From a bacterium (GTDB lineage Bacteria > SAR324 > NAC60-12), in assembly GCA_965233585.1 (NCBI GenBank), contig CBDDTI010000030.1, positions 1 to 38,079 on the forward strand: a stretch of 38,079 nt of DNA, in the 5' to 3' direction. Position numbers and translations under genes: made by a program. Each line of letters opens with the position of its first letter. The stretch's first letter is position 1. The notes below the pieces were generated by a model. It saw only the letters and a list, made by a program, of their open reading frames with translations, was not told where the DNA came from and did no database searches. Of this stretch, positions 1-24,484 are shown in pieces.

Positions 1-170
1 GCGTTTTTTTGCATTTCAAGATGTCACATTTTTTGTGGCGGGGTTTTCACAACGCACGGGAAAAGAAAGAGGGAACGCGCGGTTATTTTTGCCTTTTTTG
101 CCAGAACGCACACAAAAAAAAGCTATACATGATAGCTAGGGAGTTTGAATTTGTAGTTCGTTGAATGTAC

Positions 171-2522: not shown

Positions 2523-2833
2523 GCGCGGTGTGTTTTACATTCTCAGCGTGAGTTTTCCCGTTTCTTTGCGTAAATTTCGCTCAACCCTCCCTTTGCGAAG
2601 TGTTTTTCATAAAGAATCTTTCGAAGCATTTTTTTGTATGAAAAAGTTCTTTTTATTTAATTTAGACAACAACTTCTAACTTTATTTATAATAAATGTAC
2701 AAATGTTCGCGTGTTTGACCGCCCGCTTTTATTATAGAAAATAAATAATTTCAAGTTTGCGATTCAAATACTTCACTTTATTTTCAATTCTTGAACATTT
2801 CAAAGTTCAAAGTAAATTTTCAAATCTGACACA

Positions 2834-3891
2834 ATGAACTTCAACATTATTATCGTCTTTTTCATTGGAGTCTTTTATTTGGCTTCATGCGAGGAAGACA
2901 TTATTTTATTAAAAAATCTTCTCGCTAAAATAGTCGGTTCTTCCAATTCTTCCGAAACAACCATCACGCCTACGATTGACTTTGCATCAACCACTTCTTT
3001 CACTTCAAGCACCACGTCCACTTCAAGCACCACGTCCACTTCAAGTACCACGTCCACTTCAAGCACCACAACTTCCACCAGTACTACCGCTGTCCCGCCT
3101 ACTACCTCCGCTACCACTGTCACGAGCTCTACCCTCTCAACCACGACTTCACCCGTGCCTGTGCTAGAAACAAGCACCGGTTCTGCCACCACTTTCAATC
3201 CGCCGATCTTTTCTGCTTCACCTAATGTAACAACCACAGATAATAGTTTCTCCTTCGCGGGTTTTGACTCCGCAATTTTTGACAGTAAGTATTGATTATT
3301 TTCTTTCAAGTCAACCTTTTATACAAATATCTTATTATTTTCAGATGTCTTCAAAATATTCGTAGGATCGGTGTTCGTCTTCATTTTTGTGACGTTCGCC
3401 ATTATAATGTATCAATTAAGAAGACTAAGCCATAATCACCAACAACCGTCTAATGTCGAAGTATGATTATTGCATTTTATAAAATATTTTGTCTACTCTA
3501 TATTTTTTTTTAGCCTATTGAAATGATTTCAATACAAGCTGCTGCAGATTCATCGACAAACGGTGAGGCTGTAGAAGAATCAAACGTCGAAATTTTGCCG
3601 GTTGAGTCAACCGCATCGGCGTTGCCGACCGACGCAACTACTTTTTCGCCAATTCCGAAAAAGTAGATCAAGCGACCAACACGGAGTATACGGTAGGAAA
3701 TTTATTATTATCTTTTAAATCGCTTATTAAATATAATTTATTTTTAGGTTTATCATAGACGACCGTATTTTTCAAGCATGATTCCTCCGTTATTTAACAT
3801 GCCTCGGACGGAACCTGCGGCGGCTTCTTCAATAAACAATGACCCTTCTCCTCCTCTTTGCGCCAAGCAAAATCTGTCTACTCCCGTATAA
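2834..3891 (+). CDS. Spliced type I membrane protein with Ser/Thr-rich mucin-like ectodomain
   Basis: Signal peptide MNFNIIIVFFIGVFYLASC and STTSTS repeats. GT-AG introns 3285-3344 and 3461-3513 join in frame to the TM segment IFVGSVFVFIFVTFAIIMY-QLRR. As written it stops at 3666; one extra T in the run near 3642-3646 extends it through intron 3693-3747 to TAA at 3891. Confidence 0.75.
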
Positions 3892-3999
3892 TATGTATAT
3901 ACAATATAGTTTTTATTTTTATTTGAATAAAATAAATGCGCATTTCATTTTATTTCTCAAAATACATTCATGCCTATGTACATTTTTGGTCGTTTTATT

Positions 4000-5209
4000 T
4001 TATTGTTGGATATGAGGCAGTTTTTTCTTGATGCCAAAACACAATTCCATGAAGGCTTTTGTTATTTCCTCCAGCCCTCTTAGCGGTACTTGAATCTTCA
4101 TAATCTTGGTCGAATACTGTTGGTTGTTTTCGTTATACTAAAAAAAAAATGCCTTTTTAGATAAAATTTTTCACGCGATTTGACGTACTTACGTGTTCCT
4201 TTTTCACATAAATCACCGGCCAGGCTGATAGTCCTCCGGCCTTTTGAATATGCCTCAACCCGGTGATTCCAACGGTCACTTGCGGATTAAGGTATACTAC
4301 CTTGTACATCGGCTTGATTGGAAGGCTGATGCTTTTCTCATCCACTTTTTTTGTCTTGATCAGCTCAATAAATTTTTTGAGCGTGGCTGGATTTATGTAC
4401 ATATACTAAAAAAAAATAAAATTATTTTAATTCATCAAATTAAGTTAATGTAAACTTACATTGTCTGGACCAAAAAAGTAGGCTTCTCTTGTTGAATGTT
4501 CTTTTTGCCATTCAGCAAAATCGATATCCCTTGTCTCGCATATTTTTTCGGTGGTCCAATTTCGAAAATATTGCTTTTGCTCATCTTCGTCCATTAAAAT
4601 TTGATACGACATCAATGACGCACCTTCATAGACCGCATGATTGTTGATTTCATTGTCCACCAACAATCTTTTTTTATTTGACCTTTTTCTTTTCTTTCCT
4701 AAAATGTCTTGAGTCTGCTCATTAAGATCTTCCTCATCATCATCATCATCATCATCATCATCGTCATTGTCATCATTTTCTGAACTTTCAACGCTTAACT
4801 CCTCCGCATCGGTTGAAACATCATCATCAGATTGATCAGTCGAAATTTCTGACTCTGATTCTTCTTCCGTTTCTTCATTCACAGACTCTGGTTCTGATGA
4901 TGAAATGTCGTGGTTTCTTTTTTGTTTTTTTCCTTTAATTATAAAATTTTAATTAATTGTAAAGCGTGTAAAAACCGACTTAAAATTAAAATTACCTGAT
5001 TTCAATTTATGTTTTTTATTTGTATTCTTCTTGGATTTTCCATTACCAATCTTCTTTTTATTAGTCTTTTTATTTTTCTTTTCCGCCTCTGACGTATTTT
5101 CAGCCTTTTTTTTCTTCTCATCATCAATGGTTTTATTATCAATCTCTTGCGATTTGCCATTTTTATTGGCTGTGTTAGGCTTTTTCTTTTTTGCTGGTGA
5201 TTTCTTCAT
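4000..5209 (-). CDS. Four-exon protein (~345 aa): Lys-rich N-terminus, Asp/Glu tract, NLS-like KKRKR, globular C-terminus
   Basis: Exons 5209-4996, 4932-4460, 4405-4193 and 4137-4000 join in frame through GTAA..AG introns of 54-63 nt. This unites three separate ORF-track entries. Confidence 0.8.
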
Positions 5210-7701: not shown

Positions 7702-10700
7702 ATGGATTTTATAGAAATTCCGCGAAATTTAAAAAGATCTAACTGCTTGGAATGGAATACTCGATATGATAAATTCAACTTTCTTTATCTGTACATTAGA
7801 CATCTTTTTCCAGAAACTGCTTCCATTACAGATTTTCGTCAAATACCAGTAAAATATCTTAAAAAATTTAACATAAAAGGTTTTACGTTTCCTCTTCAAT
7901 TTTGTGATATAAAAAAATTTTTGTATAGAAATCGTCATTTACCAATTTCAATTTCCGTACTTTATGAAAGTGAAGGTCACGTTTCAAAGTTAGGGTTTAT
8001 TACTAACAAAAACAACGATAGGAGAGAAAATACTCTACATTTGTTAATGATAAAACACGATCCTAAAATCTCTTCCGATAAAATTTCTAGTAATTCCCGT
8101 CCCAAAAAATCGAGTTTTCCTTCCAAGTTTCCTAAAAAAATTAAAGATTTAAATCAACAGCATCATTTCTTTAAAATTACAAAACTCCAAGGTTTTTTGA
8201 ATAATCGGGCCGGACTGTTGTCGATTAACAAAGCGGGTCAACAGAAGTACATCCACTGTGAAAAATGTCTGCTGCGTTTTCGATCAAAATCCAAGAAAGA
8301 AAAGCATGAGCGGATTTGCTACGATAAGCAACGCACCATTTATCCCGGCAAAAATGCTGCTATAAGTTTTTCTAACCACAAACATAAGTTTAAAGCGCCT
8401 GTTGTGGGATTTTGTGATTTTGAAAGTGTACTTCAAAGAAACAAGGAACGATCTAAATGTCAACTTTGTTCTAAATTGGAATGCTTATGTGCTTTTCCCA
8501 CAAGTGACGATATAAATGTGCATAGACCGGTAGGCTACAGCCTGATTTTTGTGGACTCTGAAAATGAAGTATTCTTTCAAGAAGAATATTTAGGAGAGGA
8601 TGCAGCTAAACGTTTTTTGGATCGGATACCTCTCTACGAAAAAGTTGTTGAAGAAAGAAAACAAAAATTTAGAGATGTTCTCAAAACTCAAGCTACCCAG
8701 GAGGAATGGCAAATGTTTCGAAAAGCAACCGTTTGTCATATATGCGGTCTTCGATTTGCTACCCATCCTAAAAAGTATAGAAAGGTTTTGGATCACGATC
8801 ATGTCACAGGAAAAATAATGGGTGCGGCTCATTCGCTGTGCAATTTGACAAGATCCGGACCCTATCATACGCCAATTTTTTTTCACAATGCTCAAGGGTA
8901 AAATTTTTTATTTATTTTATTTTTTGCAATTAATTTTACAAATTAAACGTTTCAGATATGATTTGCATCTGATCATAGAAGAGTTAAACATTCGCCGATT
9001 TAAAAGAATGCCGGAAGTCTTGGCTAGAAACAGCGAGAAATTCCGCACTCTTACATTAGGCAGATTTAAAATTCAGGATTCATTAGAGCACATATCTGCC
9101 AGCTTAGACGCTCTTGTCCAAGATTTAAATCAAACTTCAAACTTTTCTTTCCCTATTTTACAACAAATGGAAAGATTCAAAAAAATTCCTATCCGTCAAA
9201 AATCAAAAGCTTTTAAACTTTTAAAAAGAAAAGGCATTTTTTGTTACGAGCATTTTCAATCATTACAAGAAATGAAAAAGAGTCGAAATCTCCCAACCAA
9301 AGATGCTTTTTATTCTGAATTAAATGAAGAACACATCTCAGAAACGGATTATTCTCATGCGCAAGAAGTCTTCAAACTGTTCAAGTGCAAGAATGTGGCG
9401 GATTACATGATGCTTTATTGTTCTTTGGATGTTATCCTGCTATGTGAAGCGTTTCTTCAATACAGAAAAATGGTTATGGAACATTTTCAATTGGATCCAA
9501 TCTATTACTTAGGTAAATTTCTTTTCTGTTGCTTGACATATAAAGTTTAAATATGAAATTTATTTCGTTTAATTTAGGAATTCCTGGACTAAGTTTTGAT
9601 GTTATGCTTATGTTCTATCAAAATTCTGAACGAGCTACAACAACAAAAGATAACCTCGCGGGTGAATCTTCCAAACCTCCAGGATCTCTGGATATCTATT
9701 CCGATCCTGAAATGGAGCACTTTTTCACAAAGGGTATCAGAGGCGGACAAAGCTTTATCTCTCAGCGTTATGCAAAAGGAAACAGCAATCCGAGAAAAAG
9801 CGGCGATCATTTACTTTACATTGACGGTAATTTTATACTGCATCGTTTGATTAATCTATTTATTTTAAATCAGTGACTTTTTAGCAAACAACTTGTACGG
9901 GAGCATGGAAACTTTAAAATTGCCAGTTTCTGATTTCGAGTGGGTTGCAAAAAAAGATCTTGAAAAATGGACTGCCAAAGATATTATCAAGATTCCTTCT
10001 CAAGACGAGACCGGGTACGCATTCGAAGTTGATTTGCATTATCCTCCTCATCTTCACCCGGTAAATCTGATCTTTTTAACACGTTTTGCATTTTGATAAA
10101 CGGTAAAATATTTACAGAAACATGATCAATTTCCGCTGGCTCCGTATACAGACACGGTTTCTTACAAACATCTGTCTCCTTATAATCGTCGTTTACTAAA
10201 ACATCTTAACCCTCGAGATTATAAGAACAAAAGATACCGAAGCAAGAAACTGTTGAGCACTTTTTATGATCGAAAAAAGTACGTGGTGCATCTGGAAAAT
10301 CTACAATATTATTTGAAAAAAGGCATGAAACTGTTGAGGATAAGAAGAGCTGTGAAGTTTCGGCAAAAAGCTTTTTTAAAAGAGTTTATTGAAAAAGTCA
10401 CGATGCTACGATCAAACGCTCGCAACGATTTTGAACTTCGGCTTTTTAAGCTTTTTGCCAACTCTACTTTTGGAAAGTTTATCGGTAAGTAAATATCCGG
10501 ATTTAGAATCTTTTTTGTATTTTTATATTTGCACAAGCGTGTGGTGGTACTGCCAATATTTAGTGCAAAATGTATTGGCAGTACACACCACACGCTCATC
10601 CGCATCTTCAATGTCGTTGTCGGGGGGCGCGTGAATCTCAGCCTCCACGGTGATGACCTCCCCGTCAAATTCCGCCATCCGGTTTTCCGCCGCCCGGATT

Positions 10701-12616
10701 TTGGCCAGACGGACAATTTCCGTTGCCCGACGTCTGGCGGCAAAAGATCTGTCGTCAGCGGGGATTCTGATGGGGATGGGGGCCTCGATGGGGTTGTCAG
10801 CGGGAATCTCAATGGGAAACTCGATAAACGCCTCGGTGGGCGCCTCGGTGGGGACGTTGGAGGAAATTTCGTTGGTGGGGGCCTCGATGAGCATCTCGAT
10901 GGGGGACTCGGTGGGAGCTTCGATGAGCGCCTCGGTGGGGACGGGGACCTCAATTAGCACCTCGGTGGGGATGTTGGAGGAAATTTCGTTGGTGGGGGCC
11001 TCGATGAGCATTTCGATGGGGAATTCGGTGGGAGCTTCGATAAGCGCCTCTGTGGGAACGTTAGAGGAAATTTCGGTGGTGGGGACCTCGATGAGCATTT
11101 CGATGAGGGATTCGGTGGGAGCTTCGATAAGCGCCTCGGTGGGAACGTTAGAGGGAATTTCGGTGGTGGGGACCTCGATGAGCATTTCGGTGGGAGCTTC
11201 GATAAGCGCCTCGGTGGGAACGTTAGAGGGAATTTCGGCGGTGGGGACCTCAATGAGCGTCTCGATGGGGGACTCTGTGGGGACGTTGGTGGGGAGATCG
11301 ACAAGAATGTCGGTGGGGACGTCAAATTCAATAAAATTTTCGTTTTGAAGGCCTCGGACAGCGCGACCGCTGCCGCCTCCGCCACCGCCAGCGCCAGCGC
11401 CGCTGCCCTCTCTGTTGACGGCAAGCACAGCAACGCCAACAGAGAGGGCAACGGCAGCGGCGCTGGCGGTGGCGGAGGCGGCAGCAGGCGGCGAAGCATC
11501 AAAAATGTCGGCCACGGCCGACCGGATCCGCCGGATCAGGCCCGGTCTCCGGTTCTTTTTCTCCTCCTTCTCCTCCTTCAGCAGCCACTGCTCGTCGTCG
11601 TCCTCCTCATCCTTCAACCTCATGTACCCCCTCTTCATCATCATCATCATCATCATCACTGTCCTCTTTCTTTTTTGTTTTGAAAGTTTGTTTTGAAAAT
11701 TGCAACATGGTTTTAGGAAGTTTTTAAAAAATAAATCTCCAAACTCCCACACACTTTATAATGAATTTTTATAAAAATGTTGTATTCTTTATAAAATATT
11801 TATTTAATTTTATATTTTTCAGAAAATGTTCGAAATTACATCGAAGTGGTGCTTTGTGGAGATGAAAAAAGCTTGAGAAAAGCCAGTCTTGGTCAACACA
11901 TCAACAATTTTCAAATTATTAATGAGAATTTGGTGGCTGTCAACAAGAAGCCGGCAATGATAGAGCTTAGAAAGCCTTTAGCCGTCGGATTTTCCATTCT
12001 GGAGTTGTCTAAGTTGTTCATGTACAGATCATACTATGACACCATTCAAAAACATTTCGGCAAAGACAATGTGTCTTTGTGTTTTTCGGACACAGATTCT
12101 TTTCTTTTAAAAGTTACATGTAACAATTTGGAAAGGGAAATGAAGAGATTGAAACACATGTTTGATTTTTCAAAGTACCCTAAACAACATCCACTTTTTG
12201 ACAACAGTAAAGCCAATCAACTTTTTTATTTCAAAGATGAATTAAAAGGTAGAGCGGCTATTACTGATTTTATAGGCTTACGTCCAAAATGTTATTCTAT
12301 GAAAATAGTTGATTTTTTGGACAAAAACAAAATTGATGAGAAAAAAGTATGCAAAGGTTTAAAAAAATCTAGCATAAAAAAGCAATTAACTTATGCAGAT
12401 TACAAAAAGTGCTTAAAACAAACTGTTGTAATTTACAAATCTTTTAAAAATTTAAGATCAAAGAATCACAAAATCCGAACGTGTTTTCAAAGAAAAATTG
12501 CGTTGTCGGCAATGGATTCAAAAAGATATGTTTTAAATTGTGGATGTCACACTTTATCGCTAGGAAATTGCCTTATTGTTAACAACAAAATGTCTAAATG
12601 CCAAATTTGTAAATAA
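7702..12616 (+). CDS. polB: Protein-primed family B DNA polymerase, 6 exons, ~1112 aa
   Basis: Exons 7702-8897, 8956-9512, 9578-9826, 9885-10060, 10118-10484 and 11823-12616. Splicing restores ExoII HNAQGYDLH, motif A YIDANNLYG, HDQFPLAP and motif B KLFANSTFGKFIENVR. ExoI CDFES, motif C SDTDS and an EndoVII/HNH-like insert (CHICG..DHDHVTG..AHSLCN) are present. Confidence 0.93.
10523..11656 (-). CDS. Nested antisense ORF in PolB intron 5: ~377 aa with a hydrophobic segment and Pro/Thr/Glu/Ile tetrapeptide repeats
   Basis: One open frame spans the GC-rich intron interior from an (ATG)7 run. Repeat length variants keep the frame. TATAAA lies ~100 nt upstream on the minus strand. Confidence 0.6.
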   Translation of the reverse strand: MMMMMMMKRGYMRLKDEEDDDEQWLLKEEKEEKKNRRPGLIRRIRSAVADIFDASPPAAASATASAAAVALSVGVAVLAVNREGSGAGAGGGGGGSGRAVRGLQNENFIEFDVPTDILVDLPTNVPTESPIETLIEVPTAEIPSNVPTEALIEAPTEMLIEVPTTEIPSNVPTEALIEAPTESLIEMLIEVPTTEISSNVPTEALIEAPTEFPIEMLIEAPTNEISSNIPTEVLIEVPVPTEALIEAPTESPIEMLIEAPTNEISSNVPTEAPTEAFIEFPIEIPADNPIEAPIPIRIPADDRSFAARRRATEIVRLAKIRAAENRMAEFDGEVITVEAEIHAPPDNDIEDADERVVCTANTFCTKYWQYHHTLVQI

Positions 12617-12673: not shown

Positions 12674-13369
12674 ATGAATGGTTTTGATTTGAGGTTTAAT
12701 ATTCCGTCTAACATGTTGGTTGTCGGTCCAACATCAAGCGGAAAAACAACGTGGTTAAAACATTTAGTGCTTCGTCGACACGAGTATTTTGCAACTCCGC
12801 CTGAAACAATGTTGTTGTTTTACAAGGAGCCGCAAAAAGCATATCAGTACATGGAAGATGACATGAACGAGGGCAAAGGTTCTGACACGCAATTTCCGTC
12901 TTTTCGTAAATTCAAAAATATTCCAAATTCAATCGAAGAGTTGAAAGATATTTTAGAATTATATCCGAGAAAAATGCCCAAATTGATTGTTTTTGACGAT
13001 TATTTAGACGATGTTGGGCAAATATTAAAACATTTTTTTACGGTTTTGACTCATCATTACAATTGTTTTACCGTTTTTCTTTGTCAAAATTTATTTGACA
13101 AAAAAGGCGATTTACGGACATTGAGCATAAATACGCAATACATGATCCTTTTTAACAATCCACGGGACAGAAGCGCCATCACACATTTGGCAAAACAAAT
13201 TTTTCCCGGTCGTGTTGGAATTTTAAATAAGGCATATAGAGAAGCAGTTAACGGCCGAAGTCACGGATATCTTCTTCTAGATTTCCATCAACAGCAAGAC
13301 GATAAAGTCAGAATTCGAAGTAACATCTTTTCTTATGAAGGATTAATGAAAGCCTACGTTACTGTTTAA
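12674..13369 (+). CDS. FtsK/HerA-family (A32-like) genome-packaging ATPase
   Basis: Walker A GPTSSGKT, Walker B LIVFDD, and Maverick-type THHYN..FLCQNLF..RTLSINTQY..FNNPRD. Confidence 0.93.
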   Translation: MNGFDLRFNIPSNMLVVGPTSSGKTTWLKHLVLRRHEYFATPPETMLLFYKEPQKAYQYMEDDMNEGKGSDTQFPSFRKFKNIPNSIEELKDILELYPRKMPKLIVFDDYLDDVGQILKHFFTVLTHHYNCFTVFLCQNLFDKKGDLRTLSINTQYMILFNNPRDRSAITHLAKQIFPGRVGILNKAYREAVNGRSHGYLLLDFHQQQDDKVRIRSNIFSYEGLMKAYVTV

Positions 13370-14658: not shown

Positions 14659-15141
14659 TCATCGTTTATTTTCAAGTTTTTTTATAAAATGAGTTACAAT
14701 TTCATCATTTTTTATTTTGGGTTTTTTTACAAATATTTTAACAAATTGTTGAGGAGACATTAAATTGTTGCCCACAGATAAACAAAAAGCGGTCACGTAC
14801 CAGCCGCAAAACAATGAATGAAAATCCTGAATGGAGTAAGACAGAATTGTTTTGAATGAGTTTTTTTCTATCCAAGGTCGTAAGAACTTCATTAAAGATC
14901 GATTCCATATCGGCGGTAAAAAACCGAATGAATCAAAATAATAGAGTTGATTTTTTCCGTTAATATACATCGCTATGAAATGTGATCCTTTTTGATTTTT
15001 TTTGGATAAGTTAGTGATTAAGCAACAAGGCAACTTAAGCGAATCAGACGGCAAATTATCGCTTGAAAAAACCCCGATGAAATATTTACATCTTGGTTGA
15101 ATATAATTGGATAAAAAGATATTTGATAATCCGTTTTCCAT
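14659..15141 (-). CDS. Adenain-like cysteine protease (capsid maturation)
   Basis: Catalytic motifs GSHF, YFDSFG and IQ....LFCG; N-terminal FIGVFSSDNLP. Confidence 0.92.
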   Translation of the reverse strand: MENGLSNIFLSNYIQPRCKYFIGVFSSDNLPSDSLKLPCCLITNLSKKNQKGSHFIAMYINGKNQLYYFDSFGFLPPIWNRSLMKFLRPWIEKNSFKTILSYSIQDFHSLFCGWYVTAFCLSVGNNLMSPQQFVKIFVKKPKIKNDEIVTHFIKKLENKR

Positions 15142-15144
15142 GAT

Positions 15145-16488
15145 TTAATTTGTTCCTTTTATAACTTGTTGGAATTGATCTATTTTGATGCCGGAGTTGA
15201 AAACAGAAAAAGCCAGGACGTATATAGGATGAGGAGTTATTACGGAAAAAGCCAGTTCTAAATCTAAATTTCCGTAATTTTCTGGATGCACGTGGAACGA
15301 ATTACATTGATCCGGTGTTAAATCGGCCGCTAGAAAAAATCTTCCTTTTAAATATTGTTCATACGTTAAACCGATGGATTGATTGCCGTGCGAAATGCCA
15401 ATACTGTCGTATAAATGCCGATACAAGTCAATGGCATCCCCCTCGTTTATATTAGGTTGAAATGGTCTGGGAAATACGCATTGACCGTTCTTTTTTAAAT
15501 TAAAAGTAGACAGATTAAAATGTTGAAAGTTGAAAGGGTTTTTGTCCGGGGCGTGTGACATGGCTTGATTGTGAACCATCACAAAAAACACTTGTTTCGG
15601 TAAAGTACCATTAGCGATATTGGCGATGTTGAAGGACGACACACCTTGAGGAATAACATAATGTCTTAAACGTGTGGCGCTAAAAGGTAGGTAGCACGGT
15701 TCTTTTAAAAGTTTGTTTTTAAAACTTTCTCTCAGCAATAATGTGGGCAACACTTTTCTCATATGTAGTTTAACATCTTTTAAAACAATTTTAAAAGGTT
15801 TTTCTGCCGCAGCATCTTGAAGCAAACCAAACTTTTCGGCGGATCTAACCAGCTTGATTTTGATATCCACATTTGGAGGTAAAAATCTGTCGGTGTCAAA
15901 CAGATCAACGGCTAAGCGCGTATTAAAATACACTTTTTTACCGTCCATAATTAACTGCTTTCTTTTATTCAAAGAAGGTGTGGCGGCTGTAACATTTATG
16001 GTATCAACTTCGTCAGCATTTTCAGGATAATACCCTTCAGCAGCCAGATAAGTTTTTTTCACCTCTGAATTGTAACTTAAGAATGATTGTATAAACATTC
16101 TCCAAGGATAAGTGACCGCTGAACTTAAATCAGCTACTTGGACCCCGTTTAAATATACTTCTACTTGGCTGAATAGACAAGCGGCAAAATGATTAGCCAG
16201 TGTGGCTTTAGTATCATTTTTTACCTGTTCACCATCGTCATTTGTCACTACAAAATAGCCGCTAAGTCTGGTTTGATTCAGTATAAAAGAGCATTCGTTA
16301 TCGCGAGGAACAAGAAATTCGACCGGTCCGGTGTTGGTGATAGAAGCCACGCTATTGTAAATAACGTGAGCTCCATCTAATAAACCCGTTTCTACTTCTA
16401 ACGGTGAGTGAAGCGCTAAACCACTTTCGGTACCGTCGTTTTGTTCAACGGCCAATCCGGCAATTCCACTTTTTTCAGGTACGCCCAT
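15145..16488 (-). CDS. Major capsid protein (double jelly-roll, Polinton PY/hexon-like), ~447 aa
   Basis: Maverick MCP-type motifs GPVEFLV, LFSQVEVYLNG, LPKQVFFVMV, NPFNFQHFNL, FFLAADLTPD and GNLDLELAF. First plausible ATG is at 16488. Confidence 0.92.
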   Translation of the reverse strand: MGVPEKSGIAGLAVEQNDGTESGLALHSPLEVETGLLDGAHVIYNSVASITNTGPVEFLVPRDNECSFILNQTRLSGYFVVTNDDGEQVKNDTKATLANHFAACLFSQVEVYLNGVQVADLSSAVTYPWRMFIQSFLSYNSEVKKTYLAAEGYYPENADEVDTINVTAATPSLNKRKQLIMDGKKVYFNTRLAVDLFDTDRFLPPNVDIKIKLVRSAEKFGLLQDAAAEKPFKIVLKDVKLHMRKVLPTLLLRESFKNKLLKEPCYLPFSATRLRHYVIPQGVSSFNIANIANGTLPKQVFFVMVHNQAMSHAPDKNPFNFQHFNLSTFNLKKNGQCVFPRPFQPNINEGDAIDLYRHLYDSIGISHGNQSIGLTYEQYLKGRFFLAADLTPDQCNSFHVHPENYGNLDLELAFSVITPHPIYVLAFSVFNSGIKIDQFQQVIKGTN

Positions 16489-16494
16489 AACAAA

Positions 16495-17037
16495 ATGGAA
16501 GTGTTGGTCAGCAATGTAAAAATTAGTTGTAAAGTTCATCTTATCAACAGCGACGAAATCTCTTTTAATACTGATAATACAATAAAACGTTATAATAATT
16601 TTGTTGTAATAAGAAAAAAATATTCCTTTATTATATTTACCAAAACAAAGCAAAATCGTCATTTTCACGTAAACATTACAAAAATCCCCTCTACAGAACA
16701 CATTGCGAAAGCATTAGACGAACTAAAATTTATTATAAGTAACGAATTTGTTGTTGAAATATTTAAAGTAGAAAACATGACGTGTTTGTATCAATCAAAA
16801 GAAGAGATTAAATTATTAAAATTATACAACCATTTAAAATCGAATAAAAATTTTGAAATTATTCTTAAGAGATATGATCCAGAAAAATTCCCAGGCGTAT
16901 TTTTAAAAATAAAAAAATGTTCAGCTTTAATATTTTCGTCAGGAAAAATAGTTATAATTGGAGCCTCCAGCGAAGAAGATGCTAAACAAGGAATAAGAAT
17001 TATTATTAAATTATTAAAAAAATATAAAATCGAATGA
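16495..17037 (+). CDS. TBP: Virus-encoded TATA-binding protein homologue (180 aa core)
   Basis: Two TBP half-repeats: VSNVKIS..NNFVVIR..FIIF and VENMTCL..YDPEKFPGVFLKI..ALIFSSGKIVIIGA, matching the TBP consensus YEPELFPGL / LIFxSGKxVxTGA. Confidence 0.85.
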   Translation: MEVLVSNVKISCKVHLINSDEISFNTDNTIKRYNNFVVIRKKYSFIIFTKTKQNRHFHVNITKIPSTEHIAKALDELKFIISNEFVVEIFKVENMTCLYQSKEEIKLLKLYNHLKSNKNFEIILKRYDPEKFPGVFLKIKKCSALIFSSGKIVIIGASSEEDAKQGIRIIIKLLKKYKIE

Positions 17038-17093
17038 TGTGAATAATGTTTATTTAGTCGAGTTTTGATATCTATACAATAAACATCGAAATT

Positions 17094-17852
17094 ATGCACG
17101 AGAAAGTAGATTATACTAAAATATGCAATCATCAATATCCAGTAGAAGACACCAGGCAAGGAGACGTGGTGTGTACCGAGTGTGGATTAGTTATTGATAA
17201 AATATATTGTTATAATTTAACAAAATCAAATTTGGAAACAGAATGGGACAAAATAAAAACATTTGATAAAGAAATTAAACCAAAAAACCAGCATTTAGAG
17301 AAAGAAAAAAATATTTTAAAAATTTTATGTAATAAATTACATTTAAATAATGATGTTACAAATGTTATTTTAAATCTATGGTCAGATATAGCAGCGTGGC
17401 ATTATCAAAAAGGTGGAAAAATTAAAATGGATGCTAAAGGATTGGTGGTAATGACGTTGTATCAGGGGTTAATAAAAGAAAAAATTCCCCGCCCGATAAG
17501 TCATTTGTGTCAAGAAGTCGGCATTAATCCAAAGATAGTGTGGCGTTGGATGAAATTATACAGACGGGACTTGACTGACATGAATAAATTAGACAATTAC
17601 ATAAAGGCAAAAGATATGAAAGAATATTTTTTACAGCCGCTGCAGTTAAATTATCAAGAAATGACGTCCGTTGAACAAATATTAAAAAAAAATGAAAATA
17701 GTTCTTTTGCTCCAAGAACTTTATTAGCTGCATGCGCTTATGCCTTTTTAAAAGAATCCAAATTGAGGTATTTAAGCGTCAAAAATATGGCTCACATTTT
17801 AGGCGTCAGTGTTATGTCGTTGTACAGATGTCGTAAAAGTCTAAATCAATAA
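17094..17852 (+). CDS. TFIIB: Virus-encoded TFIIB-like general transcription factor (252 aa)
   Basis: Zinc ribbon CNH...VEDTRQGDVVCTECGLVI and two cyclin-fold repeats (LCNKLHL..LYQGLIKEKIPRPISHLC; RTLLAACAY..MAHILGVS). Confidence 0.87.
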   Translation: MHEKVDYTKICNHQYPVEDTRQGDVVCTECGLVIDKIYCYNLTKSNLETEWDKIKTFDKEIKPKNQHLEKEKNILKILCNKLHLNNDVTNVILNLWSDIAAWHYQKGGKIKMDAKGLVVMTLYQGLIKEKIPRPISHLCQEVGINPKIVWRWMKLYRRDLTDMNKLDNYIKAKDMKEYFLQPLQLNYQEMTSVEQILKKNENSSFAPRTLLAACAYAFLKESKLRYLSVKNMAHILGVSVMSLYRCRKSLNQ

Positions 17853-17861: not shown

Positions 17862-18263
17862 ATGAATTACCACAGCGGTTTACATTGGCAACGAGGTTCG
17901 GGAATTGGATCGCTTTTTTCCGGAATTTTTCGCGGATTAATGCCGGTAGCAAAATCAACGATAAAAACTATTGGACGTGTAGCTAAAAGCGCCCCGATAA
18001 AATCTGTAGGAAAAGCTTTAAAGAAAGAAGCGACAAGAGCGGCTGTAGAAACGGCAATAGAAGCTTTGGAGGGTCAACCGGTGGGCAGAAAAGCAAAACA
18101 ACGTTTGAAATCCGCTACGCGAGGTATTTTGCTTAACGCTGCCCGACAAGCCGATAGCAACGACGATTATCGAACTCAAAATTCAAACAAAAAAAGGAAA
18201 TCCTCGTCAATCACGCAATCTAGGAAAAAAAGGCGCAAAATTTCTAAAGAACCTTTGTTTTAA
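17862..18263 (+). CDS. Basic virion core / amphipathic-peptide protein typical of Polintons
   Basis: N-terminal QRGSGIGSLFSGIFRGLMP motif followed by an amphipathic helix; Lys/Arg-rich tail. Confidence 0.8.
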   Translation: MNYHSGLHWQRGSGIGSLFSGIFRGLMPVAKSTIKTIGRVAKSAPIKSVGKALKKEATRAAVETAIEALEGQPVGRKAKQRLKSATRGILLNAARQADSNDDYRTQNSNKKRKSSSITQSRKKRRKISKEPLF

Positions 18264-19352
18264 ATGTCGATAACAACGAAAGAGACTTTTTTAAAAGAAT
18301 ACGCGAAACCGGGTTCACCAATAGCTTTTGCGTCTCCCGCGCTAATTTATCATTATTATGGGAAAAAAATCCCTCTGACGTCAATCGAGGAGTGGCTAAA
18401 AGGAACAGACTCTTACACATTACACAAACAGGCTAAATTTCCCAGACCGAGAAATCCAACATTTGCTTATCGGAAACGGTATCAGTTTCAAATTGACCTT
18501 ATAGATTTAGGAAATTTGGCTGAACAAAATGATTCTAATAGATACCTTTTGACAGCCATCGATATTTTTACACGATTCGCCTTTGTAGAACCACTTATTA
18601 ATAAAACGGCAAAAACATTTATGGAAGGGTTTGAATCTATTATGAAAAGAGCAAAACAATTTCCGCGTAGAATTTTAGCCGATAAAGGAGCGGAAATTAA
18701 GAATAAATTATTTCAAGCCTACTGCAAAAACAATAACATTCTTTTGTTACACAGCAATAATTTTGTGCACGCCCCCTTTGTGGAAAGATTTAACCGAACT
18801 TTAAAAAACCTGTTGTTCAAATACATGACTCACGAAAATACTGACAGGTACATTGACGCGTTACCATTTCTTGTCCATACCTACAACAATCGTAAACATC
18901 GCATGATTGGAATGACACCCGCTGAAGCAGAACTCCCTGGAAAAACTTATCAAATTAGAAGAAAACAAGAATTGGTTTATTCAAAGATTAAAAGAATGAA
19001 ACCAAAATACAAAATCGGCCAAACCGTGCGTATTAGCATTATGAAGGGAAAATTTGACAGAGGATTTACACCGCAATTCAAAGAAGAAATTTTTAAAATA
19101 AAATCAATTTCTACACGTTTGCCAAAACCCACTTATGAGTTGGAGACTTTAGAACAGGATGAAACTTTGGAAGGAAATTTTTATGAGAGTGAACTTACAC
19201 CCGTAGATGAGCCAGAAGTATTTGCCATCGAAAAAATTCTTCGGACAAAAAAAGATAAAAAAACCGGAGAAAAAATGGCTTTAATAAAATGGAAAGGGTA
19301 TAAAAACCCTAGTTGGACATACGAAAAAGACATAGTTGATATGCCACAATAA
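18264..19352 (+). CDS. int: Retroviral-type (rve/c-integrase) DDE integrase with C-terminal chromodomain
   Basis: QIDL..LTAIDIFTRF, ADKGAE, VERFNRTLK; chromodomain-like IEKIL..IKWKGY..SW. Confidence 0.94.
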   Translation: MSITTKETFLKEYAKPGSPIAFASPALIYHYYGKKIPLTSIEEWLKGTDSYTLHKQAKFPRPRNPTFAYRKRYQFQIDLIDLGNLAEQNDSNRYLLTAIDIFTRFAFVEPLINKTAKTFMEGFESIMKRAKQFPRRILADKGAEIKNKLFQAYCKNNNILLLHSNNFVHAPFVERFNRTLKNLLFKYMTHENTDRYIDALPFLVHTYNNRKHRMIGMTPAEAELPGKTYQIRRKQELVYSKIKRMKPKYKIGQTVRISIMKGKFDRGFTPQFKEEIFKIKSISTRLPKPTYELETLEQDETLEGNFYESELTPVDEPEVFAIEKILRTKKDKKTGEKMALIKWKGYKNPSWTYEKDIVDMPQ

Positions 19353-19358: not shown

Positions 19359-21098
19359 ATGGATTATAATATTTATTGCGTGTCAAACGCTAGTTCCGAT
19401 ACGGATGACAAAAATACTTTGAATTCTTTTACCAATTTATTTCCACAAAGTTTAGACTTGAAAAATAGAGAATGGGAAATTGGGGTAGTGTCTATTGGAT
19501 TACATTACAATTACAACCAATTGACTTTGTCAAAAGGCCAACCTTGTTTCATCACGCTAAAAAACGAATTAACATCTATAAATTCTTCGGAAGAAAACAT
19601 AAAGTCCGAAATTTTAGACCAGACAAAATCCATTTGGGTTTTGCCTAATTTAGATGAAGATGTATTGACAGTGCATAGACTGATGCAAAACTTGATGCAA
19701 TATATTTACAAGGAAGGAATGAGATTGTATCATTTTGAACCCAAATCGGGGGGTAAAGATGAAAAAGCTTACGTAATAGATGAAAACCCGAAAAAAGAAA
19801 TGGAAAATGAAAATTACAATTATAATAGATATTTTTTGATACATAAACATTTTATAAAAATTTTAAATTTAAAATACTACCAAAACGGTTTTGTATCCTC
19901 CCAAGCAAAATCAATCAAATTTTTTGACAACGAATATGTATATTTTTCTGTAAAGAAAAATTTTGCGCTTCTAACTACAGCAATTAAAGTGTATTCCGTT
20001 TTGAAACCCGGTCTGGTTCAAATAAAATCAAATATTATTTCTGACGTTCCCAGCGGAAATAGTTACTCCACAATTATGTTTACAACGACTTTACCAAATC
20101 AAATGGAAGGTCATTATTTTTACCATAATGTAAAAAATATCAGATATTATCAAGTGCGACAATCTAATATTGAAACGATAAACACTCAATTTACAGATTC
20201 TTTTGGGAATCTTTTAAGTTTAAACGAAGGTCAGCCGTCTATAGTGCATTTTCATTTAAAAGAAAAAGACAAAAATATGGATTACGAATTAACGCACGTA
20301 CGAATCGATTCACAAGTAGATACCAAATTGAACTACGAAAATACGAATAGTAGTTTTTGGGCACACTTAAAACATCCGATAAGTTTAAATCAAAACGCAA
20401 AAATAGCCTTGATGGATATATCTTTTCCCAACACCATATGTAGCATTCCAAAATCAATTGGAAGGAATCCGTTTATCTTAAATGTGTTGATAAACCAGAA
20501 CGAAACAAAAAAACACGTCGTGGAAATACCAGAACTTTATTTCTGCAACTCCGATGATTTAACAACATCAATGAACCGCCTGTTATCCGAAGAACTAAAG
20601 AAAATTTTACATTTTGAAAATTTTAATGGGTTCTTTAGGATTGTGGCTAAAACAAATAAACCTTTTTCAATAAGCATTCCCAAAAACTTTTGCCCGTTTT
20701 TAGGAATGTACGATTACTCGGAGAGAGAACTTGCAAGAATTGAGGAACGAGGTGATTACGTCACGCTTGCAGTGGCTAAGGAAAGATTTTTTGAAGCACC
20801 AAAACCAATGGACGTTTACAAATTATATCCCGGAGTTATGATATGTTATGCAAATTTTGTTCAACATTCCATTATTGGAGACAAATTTTACCCAATATTT
20901 AGAGTTATACCAACAATCGGTCAATCCACACAAAATGACTACTGTTCTATCCATTTCGAACATTTAGAATTCATAAGATGCAATGTTGATTATTTAGACG
21001 ACATAAAGATCGAACTCAGGAGATTAGACGGAAATTTGATTGAATTTAACGACGATCGAAGAGTAATTTTAAACATTGTAATTAAAAATCCAATTTAA
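19359..21098 (+). CDS. Minor capsid (penton-like) protein made of two tandem penton domains (579 aa)
   Basis: Domain 1: SNAS..NTLNSFTNLFPQSLDL..EWEIGVVSI..VHFHLK. Domain 2 (from ATG 20277): NTNSSFWAHLKHPISL..IALMDISFP..SIIGDKFYPIFRVI..IELRRLDGNLIEF. Confidence 0.82.
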   Translation: MDYNIYCVSNASSDTDDKNTLNSFTNLFPQSLDLKNREWEIGVVSIGLHYNYNQLTLSKGQPCFITLKNELTSINSSEENIKSEILDQTKSIWVLPNLDEDVLTVHRLMQNLMQYIYKEGMRLYHFEPKSGGKDEKAYVIDENPKKEMENENYNYNRYFLIHKHFIKILNLKYYQNGFVSSQAKSIKFFDNEYVYFSVKKNFALLTTAIKVYSVLKPGLVQIKSNIISDVPSGNSYSTIMFTTTLPNQMEGHYFYHNVKNIRYYQVRQSNIETINTQFTDSFGNLLSLNEGQPSIVHFHLKEKDKNMDYELTHVRIDSQVDTKLNYENTNSSFWAHLKHPISLNQNAKIALMDISFPNTICSIPKSIGRNPFILNVLINQNETKKHVVEIPELYFCNSDDLTTSMNRLLSEELKKILHFENFNGFFRIVAKTNKPFSISIPKNFCPFLGMYDYSERELARIEERGDYVTLAVAKERFFEAPKPMDVYKLYPGVMICYANFVQHSIIGDKFYPIFRVIPTIGQSTQNDYCSIHFEHLEFIRCNVDYLDDIKIELRRLDGNLIEFNDDRRVILNIVIKNPI

Positions 21099-21106: not shown

Positions 21107-21412
21107 TCAATAAAACAATTTATTTGAAAATAACGAATTATTGGTGAGATTTAATAAAGAAATATCTACTAAAGTTTGATTCACAAAATTAAGCGCCTTT
21201 AAACCGTTATAAGTTAGATCGTACATCAACCAAAGAAAAACGGAAGTAATGACAAAAATTGATAAAATCATTGCGCACACGCTACAACAATCGTTTTTTC
21301 CACAAAGATCAGGAGATTGCAAATCTTGATGAAACGTATCATGGTCTACTTCTTTGAAACAAGATTTTTTATCTCGGTCAGAGCTCGTCGTTTGGCGCAA
21401 AGAGACGCTCAT
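21107..21412 (-). CDS. Small predicted membrane protein (101 aa)
   Basis: Cys cluster followed by the TM-like segment AMILSIFVITSVFLWLMY; ATGA overlap with the upstream ORF. Confidence 0.55.
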   Translation of the reverse strand: MSVSLRQTTSSDRDKKSCFKEVDHDTFHQDLQSPDLCGKNDCCSVCAMILSIFVITSVFLWLMYDLTYNGLKALNFVNQTLVDISLLNLTNNSLFSNKLFY

Positions 21413-21810
21413 ACTTCTACTACTTCTTCACGAATTGGATAATGTTCTAAACAGAAATCTTTACACAACAATTTCATGCAAAATGACGCATAAAAATGAA
21501 ACACTTTCATTTCATTTGAAATTTCACGATGCCACCACAATTTGGTATCGGAGTCGCGTGAATTATTGAGTTTGCCGAGAAGTTTGTCTTTAATGCAAGC
21601 CCTGTACTGCACTAATTCACTGTCCAAAGATTCCAATGCTTCGTTGATTTTACGAAGATGCGCGCACATACGACGCAAAGAATGATGCACAACGCGGTTC
21701 GGGTCGGAAGTATCATAAATACCGGTAACATCAGGACCGGTATATTCGTCTCCCCAGTCGGAATTGTGCGACGATGATGATTTTGACTGCTTGTTGTCTT
21801 GACCACTCAT
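21409..21810 (-). CDS. Hypothetical viral protein (~133 aa)
   Basis: ATG-initiated ORF with a coiled-coil-like middle and Cys-containing C-terminus; no family recognised. Confidence 0.55.
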   Translation of the reverse strand: MSGQDNKQSKSSSSHNSDWGDEYTGPDVTGIYDTSDPNRVVHHSLRRMCAHLRKINEALESLDSELVQYRACIKDKLLGKLNNSRDSDTKLWWHREISNEMKVFHFYASFCMKLLCKDFCLEHYPIREEVVEV

Positions 21811-23346: not shown

Positions 23347-23886
23347 GTTCTCAGAACCTTTCTTCGCGCCCCCGAACTGATTCAAGACGTGGAAAGTGGA
23401 AAAAATTGAGGTTGCAAACGGCTTGCAATCGGCTTGCAACAGGCCGATTGCAGACGAAAACAAGCCGATTACAGGCTCGATTGAGCCTGTTGCAAGCCGA
23501 TTGCAGACGAAAACAAGCCGATTACAGGCTCGATTGAGCCTGTTGCAAGCCGATTGCAGACGAAAACAAGCCGATTACAGGCTCGATTGAGGTTGTTGCA
23601 AGCCGATTGCAGACGAAAACAAGCCGATTGCAGGCTCGATTGAGGTTGTTGCAAGCCGATTGCAGACGAAAACAAGCCGGTTGCAGACGATTACAAGCCG
23701 ATTTCAGGTTGAAACAGGCTCAATGTAGATGCCAGGAAGGTGTTTTGAGAGCGCATCAAGATGGTTTTTATCGGTAAACGGATGGTTGAAAGACGGTTTC
23801 AGCCTGTTTTAAGGTGTTTTGAGAACGTTTTAAGGTGTTTTGAGAGCGTAACAAGCTTGAATGAGAGTGATGTAGGGACATTACCC
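23347..23886 (-). repeat. Right terminal inverted repeat of the Polinton
   Basis: Reverse complement of 1001-1541, ending ...GTAGGGACATTACCC. Confidence 0.95.
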
Positions 23887-24484
23887 TCATCTGCCCAAGG
23901 TTGGTGGAGGATTCTGAAACTGGCATCCACCAAGCCACCATGGCCAAGATTAAGTTGTAAGCAGAAAGGCTGGATGACTTCACCATCAAAAACTGCTTTG
24001 TTTCCCCCTTCATGGTGGCCGAAACGGAATCAAAATACAACCTTGTGGGTCTGCCTAGCATTAGTGTGTTGATAAACCGGGATGGGAGGTGTTCCAAGGC
24101 TGTGTTGGCAAGCAAGATGATGGATGACCTAGCCAAGATAGAGTGGGATCACTCAGGGGAATGGTCTGGCACCCAATAACCATCAACCCAAAAAGGTCTG
24201 AATCCAAAGGTCATTGCCAGTAATGTAATTATAGAAAGGTTGGTGTGTTCTTTGCCAGAAAATTTAATATGAGGGGAGGAAAAGAGGGAGATTAAAACAA
24301 AAAGAGGGAGATAAAAACCAAAAGAGGGAGATAAAAACTACTTTACTGTTCAGTTTTATGAATGGGTTTGCCGTGCAATAAAAACCTTCCATCATGTAAA
24401 CATGTTATTATAAATCAGGGTGGCAATAATGTGGAATAAACATTATTGCACTTTTTGCAAAATTTTGAAAAAATTTTGGTGTAA

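Follow-up and report, generated by a model that had tools for sequence, protein, structure and literature searches.

A Polinton-type element carrying adjacent genes for an asymmetric TATA-binding protein and a TFIIB homologue of reduced architecture

The 38,079-nt stretch of DNA analyzed herein (the window) contains a virus-like transposon of 22,886 bp, located in an animal genome assembly, that carries genes for a TATA-binding protein (TBP) and a TFIIB homologue. The two genes lie between the capsid and integrase genes and occupy 5.7% of the 22.9-kb element, whose measured size agrees with the ~23 kb proposed in an earlier note on this sequence. The TBP-TFIIB pair is a core module in this Polinton-type clade, whose members were found integrated in one animal genome and in many environmental metagenomes. 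We consider it probable that the pair is functional and virus-owned, and that it is a core, vertically inherited module of these Polintons/Mavericks that recruits host RNA polymerase II (Pol II). The broader proposal, in which the 19–23-kb clade possesses a founding, vertically inherited minimal initiation platform that acts as a self-amplifying, TFIID-independent switch handing over host Pol II, is offered tentatively and is in our judgment rather doubtful.

The element is bounded by terminal inverted repeats at positions 1001–1541 and 23,347–23,886. The main arms (1001–1489 and 23,398–23,886) are 489 nt long and 100% complementary, and an extra pair of 59-nt arms (97%) prolongs the repeats to 1541 and 23,347, respectively. 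The left repeat, which has internal tandem repeats, is also where the repeated-DNA profile of the window begins, while the right one was delimited by arm pairing and its end was read directly. The six bases outside the two ends are acagcc and tcatct, so no target-site duplication is seen at this copy. On the plus strand, positions 18,264–19,352 encode a retroviral-type integrase with a C-terminal chromodomain (Pfam rve, 1.3e-8; Chromo, 8.1e-5), whose score against PF00665 (rve), 35.4 bits, passes the cut-off of 32.6; the homologue in the IMG/VR contig L013 matched the same two domains at 1.6e-10 and 5.6e-11. The gene of a putative protein-primed family-B DNA polymerase (7702–12,616, plus strand) is split over four or more ORFs or frames, with a GC-rich insert of 1.3 kb separating motif B from motif C, and it is broken up in the window copy and in every related copy. 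Five of its segments are collinear with an intact 1343-aa polymerase-like protein of another Polinton (contig C492), and what we take to be the Exo and A/B/C motifs were read directly, with ExoI, ExoIII, B, and C at 8410, 9416, 10,448, and 12,083. Searches with the polymerase against Pfam and PDB returned zero matches.

Three further genes were tentatively assigned to virion functions, all of them from weak matches under curated cut-offs. The first, at 12,674–13,369 on the plus strand, is a putative genome-packaging ATPase of the A32/FtsK-like type (Pox_A32, 0.0029; FtsK_SpoIIIE, 0.0093), the L013 homologue of which matched Adeno_IVa2 at 0.0011. The second, at 14,659–15,141 on the minus strand, is a putative adenain-like maturation protease that matched Peptidase_C5 at 0.031, and its L013 homologue did so at 0.0026, likewise under the curated cut-off. 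The third, at 15,145–16,488 on the minus strand, is a putative double jelly-roll major capsid protein: PF21738 (DJR-like) is present in 15–24% of the members of its nearest ESM-Atlas clusters and in one of 16 relatives (at 0.014), and its profile matched no PDB entry by sequence. Two conserved proteins complete the right half. One, of 133 aa with a basic tail (17,862–18,263, plus strand), has no family match and is always located 3′ of TFIIB; it follows TFIIB in all three lineages of the host assembly and is annotated in 57 environmental ORFs. The other, of 579 aa (19,359–21,098, plus strand), has no assigned function, is syntenic in environmental loci, and has as its nearest ESM-Atlas clusters hypothetical proteins of Preplasmiviricota. 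With its inverted ends, rve-chromo integrase, fragmented polymerase, and putative capsid, protease, and ATPase genes, the element is of Polinton type. As had been noted before, no RNA polymerase subunit was recognized, none appearing among the 25 ORFs scanned.

The TBP gene (16,495–17,037) and the TFIIB gene (17,094–17,852), both on the plus strand, are adjacent and intact, and coordinates, Pfam and PDB profiles, and AlphaFold/Foldseek comparisons all agree with the earlier reading of a 180-aa TBP next to a TFIIB. The TBP matched Pfam PF00352 with an E-value of 1.6e-19 (70 bits; cut-off, 22.9) over residues 90–177, that is, over its second repeat only. By phmmer against PDB, 35 distinct sequences were retrieved, every one of them a TBP, with an archaeal protein at the top (1pcz, 1.1e-18); archaeal TBPs scored 79–82 bits versus 52–59 bits for eukaryotic ones. 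A sequence profile of the first half matched no canonical TBP, and Pfam was likewise silent on the first repeat. The AlphaFold model has a mean pLDDT of 88.7 and a first repeat without the first helix, and all 44 of its Foldseek matches in PDB at E ≤ 0.001 are TBP chains, aligned over 191–199 columns with TM scores of 0.55–0.73. Because these alignments span the full length, the fold, although not the sequence, identifies the first repeat as one half of a TBP; two tandem repeats are thus predicted in one saddle, the second by sequence and the first by fold only. Profile searches and the structural model together confirm the predicted product as a true TATA-binding protein homologue with asymmetric repeats, the second canonical and the first highly diverged.

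TBPs are distinguished by two pairs of Phe that kink DNA and by two Asn at the pseudo-dyad. The four Phe of intercalation type pointed out in the earlier note, F36 (NNF), F48 (IIF), F132 (EKF), and F147 (LIF), are invariant in 21 relatives, as are N7 and N94. In the alignment with Pyrococcus TBP, F132 and F147 coincide with the Phe of its EQFPG and LLFSSGK segments, while F36 and F48, placed only by the strand register of the model and by what is generally known of TBPs, are presumably the kinking pair of the first repeat. Among 42 relatives with 27–49% identity, F132 and F147 remained invariant and F48, N7, and N94 were at least 90% conserved; at position 36, conservation is below 90% in the wider family. 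The family-specific first half was found in 107 of the best 150 representative clusters, so the asymmetric family amounts to at least 107 protein clusters, and 40 canonical clusters stand separate from it. Only two eukaryote-like TBPs were present among the 150 representatives.

The 252-aa TFIIB-like protein was described before as having a zinc ribbon and two cyclin folds, a description borne out by the structural model, by Foldseek, and by the family profile. In the window protein itself, the ribbon scored 28.4 bits against PF08271, 0.6 under the cut-off of 29, and the cyclin repeat was below PF00382 detection in the Pfam scan; among 20 relatives, 14 matched PF00382 at E ≤ 0.001 and 14 matched PF08271. 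The L013 homologue scored 42.9 bits, above the curated TFIIB-repeat cut-off of 23.6, and hhalign paired it with the TFIIB family of the window at a probability of 99.4%. The family profile matched human TFIIB at 1.8e-7, and a wider alignment did so at 8.9e-21 in a single stretch running from the ribbon through both cyclin folds (human residues 23–287). The AlphaFold model (pLDDT 73.6) shows a three-stranded ribbon and ten helices (residues 69–251). TBP and TFIIB chains head the respective structural matches of the two models at E ≤ 0.001, and the TFIIB cores 5wh1, 1c9b, and 1vol were among the structures found. In the ribbon motif C11-x-H13...C27-x2-C30, H13, C27, and C30 are invariant and C11 is at least 90% conserved in 25 relatives; these ligands and the C-terminal helix-turn-helix are conserved over 18–54% identity. 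Profiles and model thus confirm the predicted product of 17,094–17,852 as a TFIIB homologue.

In cellular TFIIB, the B-reader and B-linker contribute to DNA opening and to selection of the start site. In the human protein, ~53 residues were left unmatched by the viral family, which indicates that most of this region is absent. In its place, the window protein has ~30 poorly conserved residues (fewer in the environmental relatives), and model residues 37–65 have a pLDDT under 50. Since most of the B-reader/B-linker is missing, we class the protein among TFIIB homologues of reduced architecture rather than with canonical TFIIB, and it is not assured that it is a fully competent initiation factor. 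A complex prediction for TBP with the TFIIB core, run without controls, scored 0.00 and is uninformative either way. The TBP scored best against archaeal proteins and the TFIIB against the human one, a split within the pair.

These comparisons also bear on the idea that the pair serves another machine, either in the transcription of an unannotated small RNA, in the manner of TFIIIB (Brf-type) or of a Pol I factor, or as an origin-binding accessory that aids protein-primed replication at the AT-rich genome ends. Host transcription factors do assist replication at the adenovirus origin, the same element carries a polymerase gene, the TFIIB profile matches Brf1 at 1.5e-6, and Brf1/Brf2 chains appear in Foldseek from rank 25. 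Ranks 1–24, however, are all TFIIB/TFB, and with the wide profile human TFIIB reached 77.8 bits, whereas Brf1 (31.3), Brf2 (26.8), yeast TFIIB, and archaeal TFB all lay between 26.8 and 31.3. Moreover, the viral protein stops right after the second cyclin fold, without a Brf-type C-terminal extension, no tRNA or Rfam RNA was detected in the element, and no TATA-like run occurs in the first 60 nt of the inverted repeat. We therefore hold a role in another machine to be quite improbable.

The host assembly contains ~40 copies of the pair in three deep lineages, with 28–100% identity, nearly all intact and with the same gene order throughout. Full-length ORFs were present in 37 of 40 copies extracted for TBP and in 39 of 41 for TFIIB. 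Estimates of dN/dS, computed for copies inside each of the lineages A, B, and C and for A against B, were 0.15–0.22 for TBP, 0.17–0.24 for TFIIB, 0.06–0.15 for the capsid gene, and 0.06–0.11 for the integrase gene; TBP and TFIIB are under purifying selection.

Among metagenome and IMG loci with room downstream of TBP, TFIIB adjoins it in 62 of 64, and a divergent capsid gene lies upstream in 57 of the 59 with room on that side. The arrangement of the window, protease-capsid on one strand and TBP-TFIIB-small protein-integrase on the other, recurs in contig L013, and in the environmental relatives TBP opens a long rightward unit that also holds the integrase and packaging genes. These relatives were recovered by the wider TBP alignments only, the close TFIIB alignment (A1) having found none in IMG/VR, GTDB genome contigs, or JGI metagenomes. 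For 27 distinct elements, the identity matrices of TBP, TFIIB, capsid, and integrase were correlated (Spearman 0.84–0.87; Mantel p 0.001), from which it follows that TBP and TFIIB co-diverge with the capsid and integrase. As a separate observation, one member of the clade is now filed within a "giant virus" bin.

A recent, neutrally decaying capture of host TBP/TFIIB genes, unique to this copy or host, is refuted by the selection, the intact copies, the synteny, and the co-divergence with the capsid gene, and we give it practically no credence. The homologues are indeed cellular-type proteins, and nothing further favors a capture, while identity to solved eukaryotic proteins is low (20–22% for TBP, 15–20% for TFIIB) and each of the 41 PF00352 matches obtained in the host assembly belongs to a copy of the element. 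The synteny and dN/dS checks suggested earlier thus turned out in favor of a pair that is neither unique nor decaying.

Upstream of TFIIB, at 17,023–17,058 on the plus strand, we found what we take, by comparison with the consensus sequences, to be a TATA box and an initiator. The TATAAAA (17,023–17,029) overlaps the last TBP codons, and the A of the initiator-like TTAGT, at 17,056, is 33 nt from it and 38 nt before the TFIIB ATG. Lineages A and C have the same TATA-to-CAGT spacing, ~30–33 nt. In the environmental relatives, 28 of 51 distinct upstream regions contain a TCAGT no more than 60 nt from the TBP ATG (background, 5.7%), and 12 of these 28 also have TATAWA at −31 to −34 (background, 0.3%). 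The YAG-like motifs that precede TBP and TFIIB had been considered candidate splice acceptors, a reading that was dropped; because TCAGT keeps a fixed distance from TATA in the environmental comparison, they are read as initiator elements. Within the window's element, two TATA+initiator composites were seen versus 3.2 expected from shuffles, and one of the two precedes a gene.

The canonical combination was found only before TFIIB (window) or before TBP (environmental relatives), and no shared promoter signal was found on the other genes of the element. The capsid gene, whose start lies 6 bp from the divergent TBP start and abuts it, has TCAGT in two of 53 upstream regions and no recognizable TATA/initiator promoter. 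Neither the cross-lineage upstream alignments nor an inspection of the codons at the 5′ end of TBP, where a capsid promoter might be hidden, gave anything decisive. The earlier suggestion that the pair redirects the polymerase to late or capsid promoters is therefore unsupported, the promoters found being those in front of the pair itself.

In the mechanism that we favor, viral TBP and TFIIB would together form a minimal platform on promoter DNA of the element itself, to which the zinc ribbon of TFIIB would draw host Pol II, and viral transcription would thereby be freed from host TFIID. The analysis shows the identity, fold, conservation, selection, and synteny of the pair and the promoter before it; that the two proteins bind DNA and each other and recruit Pol II, and at which promoters, is what we infer from this. 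Since the gene or genes of the pair stand behind a host-type TATA+initiator promoter, the module can be read as a self-amplifying switch: host factors would fire this promoter first, and the products would then boost transcription of the element. Both proteins are pared down, with regulatory parts gone, the first TBP repeat rebuilt, and the B-reader/B-linker mostly missing.

The same reductions, together with the missing TATA-type signal on other genes, would also suit a decoy, in which the pair competes with host TBP/TFIIB for TATA boxes, partners, or Pol II and so damps host or antiviral transcription, with some other route serving to express the element. A TFIIB that has lost most of its B-reader/B-linker fits such a role, and so does a rebuilt first TBP repeat, the surface of which binds regulators in cellular TBP. 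The zinc ribbon ligands and the C-terminal helix-turn-helix are, however, both kept, which is more than a pure decoy should require, and the four DNA-kinking Phe are kept too; the strict inheritance of TBP and TFIIB as neighbors likewise suits a cooperating pair. We thus judge host shut-off unlikely, albeit the strongest of the alternatives to recruitment of Pol II to the element.

If the broader proposal is correct, all other viruses known to bring basal transcription factors of their own would be far larger than these. Polintons/Mavericks rank with the most widespread eukaryotic virus-like elements, and their transcription is essentially unstudied; two small expressible proteins and a defined promoter would offer a handle on the takeover of Pol II by a small DNA virus of the nucleus. 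The pair may also represent a natural minimal eukaryotic initiation platform, with no TBP tail, a rebuilt first repeat, and hardly any B-reader/linker, and it can serve as a marker for spotting the clade in genomes and metagenomes. Polinton-like viruses have been hypothesized to be ancestral to giant viruses. If so, the module could be related to the TBP and TFIIB genes of the latter, and it bears on the debated links between the two groups.

That TBP and TFIIB fall outside the canonical Polinton gene set, as the earlier note stated, fits the searchable literature, while in this clade they are core genes. Its supposition that the pair was unreported was nearly right: the sole printed precedent found is a gene labeled "TBP" in the Fig. 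5 legend of Starrett et al. (2021; PMC8502044), and no paper in the literature searched mentions TFIIB in Polinton-type elements. The virus concerned, a mid-size linear dsDNA (MELD) virus with an adintovirus-like PolB, resembles our element in being Polinton-related, in size, and in possession of a TBP-like gene. In the portions of that article available, TFIIB is absent and TBP is neither discussed nor surveyed, a supplementary text has no mention of the TBP gene, and the legend does not settle whether the virus belongs to this clade.

Among cellular systems, the closest likeness is to the TBP-TFIIB(TFB)-DNA complexes of eukaryotes and archaea (PDB 1vol, 1c9b, 1ais, and 1d3u), which have the same folds and exactly the chains that our models retrieved. 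The element's TFB-sized protein of a ribbon and two cyclin folds and its TBP of ~180 aa, which has no N-terminal tail, are similar to the archaeal minimal set. In contrast to these complexes, the first TBP repeat of the element is beyond sequence recognition and the linker between ribbon and core is far shorter.

Among viruses, adenovirus uses one promoter, the major late promoter, for many late genes, through host TBP/TFIID, and to our knowledge it encodes no basal transcription factors. The environmental relatives similarly have one TATA+initiator promoter heading a packed one-strand gene block, whose multi-gene transcription is putative, but they encode basal factors of their own. The NCLDV, especially algal giant viruses without RNA polymerase (prasinovirus/chlorovirus type), likewise encode a TBP-fold protein and TFIIB and need host Pol II. 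In BFVD, the structures closest to the TBP model come from TBPs of NCLDV, with that of a Heterosigma akashiwo virus at the top (E 1.6e-10), and no named Preplasmiviricota protein was present among the matches, many of which are unnamed. NCLDV genomes are ~10–100 times larger than this 22.9-kb integrating element, which also differs in its distinct asymmetric TBP family and in a TFIIB without most of the reader/linker.

Beta- and gammaherpesviruses, also without an RNA polymerase of their own, supply a TBP-fold protein (UL87, BcRF1, ORF24) that recruits host Pol II to viral promoters. BcRF1, UL87-domain, and U58 proteins were weak structural matches to our TBP model (E 5e-4 to 1e-3), and by this comparison the element's TBP is not a member of the UL87/ORF24 family and would at most work alike. 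The herpesvirus mimics are large, their TBP fold is cryptic, and they act with several viral partner subunits, and we know of no TFIIB homologue in their pre-initiation complex; the element, in contrast, has a minimal 180-aa TBP saddle and, next to it, a true TFIIB homologue.

The identity and fold of the TBP–TFIIB pair, the selection acting on it and its synteny across a whole clade of elements could all be demonstrated. The TBP gene (16495–17037) was matched by PF00352 over residues 90–177 of its product (E = 1.6e-19, 70 bits), and phmmer found 35 TBP sequences in the PDB. A profile built from 21 relatives scored archaeal TBPs at 79–82 bits and eukaryotic TBPs at 52–59 bits, always aligning to known TBPs through its second half only. 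The AlphaFold model showed a complete two-repeat saddle (pLDDT 88.7), with no predicted helix between strands one and two of the first repeat, and all 44 Foldseek matches in the PDB at E ≤ 0.001 were TBP chains aligned over their whole length. Because the sequence matches cover the second half alone while the model contains both repeats, this TBP is asymmetric: its second repeat is canonical, whereas the first has been rebuilt to the point that sequence searches no longer recognise it. The four phenylalanines and the asparagines at positions 7 and 94 were invariant among the 21 relatives and largely retained in 42 relatives of 27–49% identity.

For the TFIIB (17094–17852), the Pfam match to the zinc ribbon fell 0.6 bits below the cut-off. 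A profile of the close family nevertheless matched human TFIIB at 1.8e-7, ribbon and core aligning in the same order, and a wider profile, in which environmental members were included, did so at 8.9e-21 in a single stretch (profile 13–210 to human 23–287), without a match for about 53 residues that separate ribbon from core in the human protein. Against Brf1, Brf2, yeast TFIIB and archaeal TFB, the wider profile reached just 26.8–31.3 bits. The model (pLDDT 73.6) comprised a three-stranded ribbon, ten helices and a low-confidence linker at residues 37–65, and TFIIB/TFB chains occupied Foldseek ranks 1–24. PF00382 and PF08271 were each reached by 14 of the 20 family members, and the metal ligands and the C-terminal helix-turn-helix were conserved across the family. 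The protein is a TFIIB homologue whose architecture is reduced. The earlier note had described a two-repeat TBP with four phenylalanines and a TFIIB with a zinc ribbon and two cyclin folds, and both descriptions were borne out. The two partners also differed in their affinities, the TBP family favouring archaeal over eukaryotic TBPs and the TFIIB favouring human TFIIB far over archaeal TFB and yeast TFIIB. The reader/linker missing from the TFIIB and the rebuilt first repeat of the TBP leave room for the pair to act as a decoy rather than as initiation factors.

When the TBP profile was searched against 1.84 billion representatives, 3261 matches were obtained at E ≤ 0.001. Among the best 150 of these, 107 matched the family's first-half profile, 40 were canonical symmetric TBPs and three were fragments, the sets of 107 and 40 having no overlap. 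A sub-alignment of the family led to one IMG/VR contig (L013), filed under a giant-virus bin, and to 104 JGI metagenome relatives, from which 80 loci were retained and their ORFs annotated with HMMs made from the host copies. A TBP ORF was present in 78 loci, 64 of them with at least 500 nt downstream. TFIIB adjoined TBP in 57 of these 64 by the distance rule and, with five more that overlapped by 66–67 nt, in 62/64; the misses were L075 (a 560-nt gap with no ORF match) and L093 (weakly matched and in a different context). A divergent capsid gene lay upstream of TBP in 57 of the 59 loci with room for it, mostly 22–60 bp away. The capsid–TBP–TFIIB–integrase synteny proposed for survey is clade-wide. 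Leftward the order was polymerase, protease and capsid, and rightward TBP, TFIIB, a protein of about 125 aa, integrase, a protein of about 600 aa and ATPase, with tiny or negative gaps between genes. The identity matrices of TBP, TFIIB, capsid and integrase were correlated (Spearman 0.84–0.87, Mantel p 0.001, 27 distinct elements). The contig L013 (20.6 kb, named as a giant-virus MAG) carries the complete order polymerase, protease, capsid, TBP, TFIIB, integrase and ATPase; it is probably a small virus that was wrongly assigned to the genome of a giant virus. Its TFIIB scored above Pfam's curated TFIIB-repeat cut-off and matched the window's TFIIB family with an hhalign probability of 99.4%.

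In the host assembly (G000), 43 TFIIB and 42 TBP matches were found, each set on 35 contigs, with more than 80% of the query covered in 39 of each; all 41 PF00352 matches were element copies. By identity to the window's proteins, the copies formed three lineages, A, B and C (93–100%, 72–77% and 28–41%). ORFs were full-length in 37 of 40 TBP and 39 of 41 TFIIB copies. By the Nei-Gojobori method, with non-independent pairs and with comparisons involving lineage C saturated, dN/dS was 0.15–0.22 for TBP and 0.17–0.24 for TFIIB, whether copies were compared inside a lineage (A, B or C) or between A and B, and 0.06–0.15 for capsid, 0.06–0.11 for integrase and 0.05–0.10 for ATPase. The suspicion of decay unique to this copy is answered by these values, and a one-off capture of the two genes was rejected given the full-length copies in three lineages, the constraint and the clade-wide synteny. 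G000 is filed as a prokaryote genome of 747 contigs and 12.0 Mb, three contigs being 0.6–1.1 Mb and the other ~740 small (33–46% G+C), many of the small ones with Polinton copies; it appears that repeat-enriched host-animal DNA was binned together with a bacterium. The right flank of the window contains exons of an amiloride-sensitive sodium channel (30085–32741, minus strand; Pfam ASC, 199.7 and 67.2 bits). Genes of this family belong to animals, so the contig itself most likely comes from the host animal and was placed in a bacterial bin.

Self-comparison of the window revealed inverted repeats at 1001–1489 and 23398–23886 (489 nt, 100% complementary), lengthened to 1541 and 23347 by an extra 59-nt arm pair. 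The interior was repeated in G000 (about 10 copies at ≥90% identity, 20–40 at lower identity) and the flanks were single-copy, so the element measures 22,886 bp. Despite the perfect inverted ends, no target-site duplication was found at the window copy, the hexamers at 995–1000 and 23887–23892 being different. A 133-aa ORF near the right end (21409–21810, minus strand) has a partial inverted copy near the left end (2006–2242, plus strand; 34% identity); the two appear to be the remains of an ancient extension of the terminal repeats that has since diverged. The integrase (18264–19352) combines an rve domain, above the Pfam cut-off, with a chromodomain, while a putative adenain-like protease and a putative A32/FtsK-like ATPase gave weak matches only. 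The putative capsid protein (447 aa) had no match in the PDB; its nearest ESM-Atlas clusters have a double-jelly-roll domain in 15–24% of members, and just one of 16 capsid relatives reached the corresponding Pfam family (E = 0.014). In lineage C (C98, C382, C593, C58, C93 and C435), two tandem putative capsid paralogues, about 52–57% and 38–42% identical to the window's capsid, lie directly upstream of TBP. Always 3' of TFIIB is a 133-aa protein (17862–18263) whose N-terminal part is amphipathic and rich in Gly and Ser and whose tail is very basic; it may resemble adenovirus protein VI. The ORF at 2834–3466 (plus strand) has a signal peptide-like start and a long run rich in Ser and Thr, a hydrophobic stretch lies in the next open frame, and together they may encode a spliced mucin-like membrane protein of the element. 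As first read from the sequence, no RNA polymerase subunit was recognised in a scan of 25 ORFs. The element yielded no tRNA or Rfam RNA, which, with the low Brf1 and Brf2 scores, makes a Pol III-type role for the pair less likely than one in Pol II initiation; an origin-binding role is likewise less likely.

The putative protein-primed polymerase gene is fragmented into at least four ORFs or frames (7702–12616) and was recognised neither by Pfam nor by the PDB search. Five pieces (8194–12568) run collinear with a polymerase-like protein that is intact (1343 aa) in a different Polinton, on contig C492, and what we presume to be ExoI, ExoIII, motif B and motif C appear in that order. Between motifs B and C lies a GC-rich, low-complexity 1.3-kb insert (about 10500–11800) holding a minus-strand 377-aa ORF, variable between copies. 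The split is common to all three host lineages and the environmental relatives, in which the final 150–300 residues form a separate ORF, and such conservation points away from decay and towards introns or a gene that is truly split. The C492 locus (149–4177) belongs to another Polinton family of G000, unrelated to the first. Its polymerase-like protein, whose polymerase domain went unrecognised by Pfam, contains a Rho_N (SAP-like) domain and an endonuclease-VII-like insert and has at least 8000 database relatives, with named ones in a scallop, a coral and a sea spider.

Within 60 nt of the TBP ATG, TCAGT occurred in 28 of 51 distinct environmental capsid–TBP spacers (background 5.7%), its A lying a median 13 nt 5' of the ATG, and 12 of the 28 also had TATAWA starting 31–34 nt upstream of that A (background 0.3%). 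TATA plus initiator is the classical Pol II core promoter arrangement. Other genes seldom had it (integrase 0/41, protease 0/31), and TCAGT lay upstream of the capsid gene in just 2/53 environmental regions. The late promoters of the first reading found no support. In the window, the likely capsid start codon and that of TBP stand back to back (16486–16497) with 6 bp between them; therefore at least one of the two promoters must overlap the coding sequence of the adjacent gene or lie at a great distance. Here the composite precedes TFIIB (TATAAAA at 17023; TTAGT, whose A at 17056 lies 38 nt 5' of the ATG), with similar spacing in lineages A and C, and across the window's element composites were not enriched (2 seen, 3.2 expected). 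Judged from these motifs, upstream of TBP in the environmental loci or of TFIIB in the window, the pair's own genes carry a host-type promoter.

Within Polinton, Maverick and adintovirus full texts, the sole relevant item on TBP, TATA or TFIIB was Starrett et al. 2021 (PMC8502044). The legend of its Fig. 5 names a 'TBP' gene in a mid-size linear dsDNA (MELD) virus with an adintovirus-like PolB, and no TFIIB. The relevant passages share their content with the preprint 10.1101/697771; the supplement searchable as text has no mention. The TFIIB passages of 10.1101/2022.05.25.493380 are confined to giant viruses, and the term matches in the searchable text of PMC12220804 to its reference list. No further report of TBP or TFIIB in Polintons appeared in the searchable full texts, though subscription journals and other supplements could hold one. 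We infer that, at promoters of the element, the pair would nucleate the complexes with which host Pol II initiates, because the DNA-kinking residues, the ribbon and the helix-turn-helix are retained, because the element has no recognisable RNA polymerase gene, and because this is what the TBP and TFIIB folds do in cells and in archaea.
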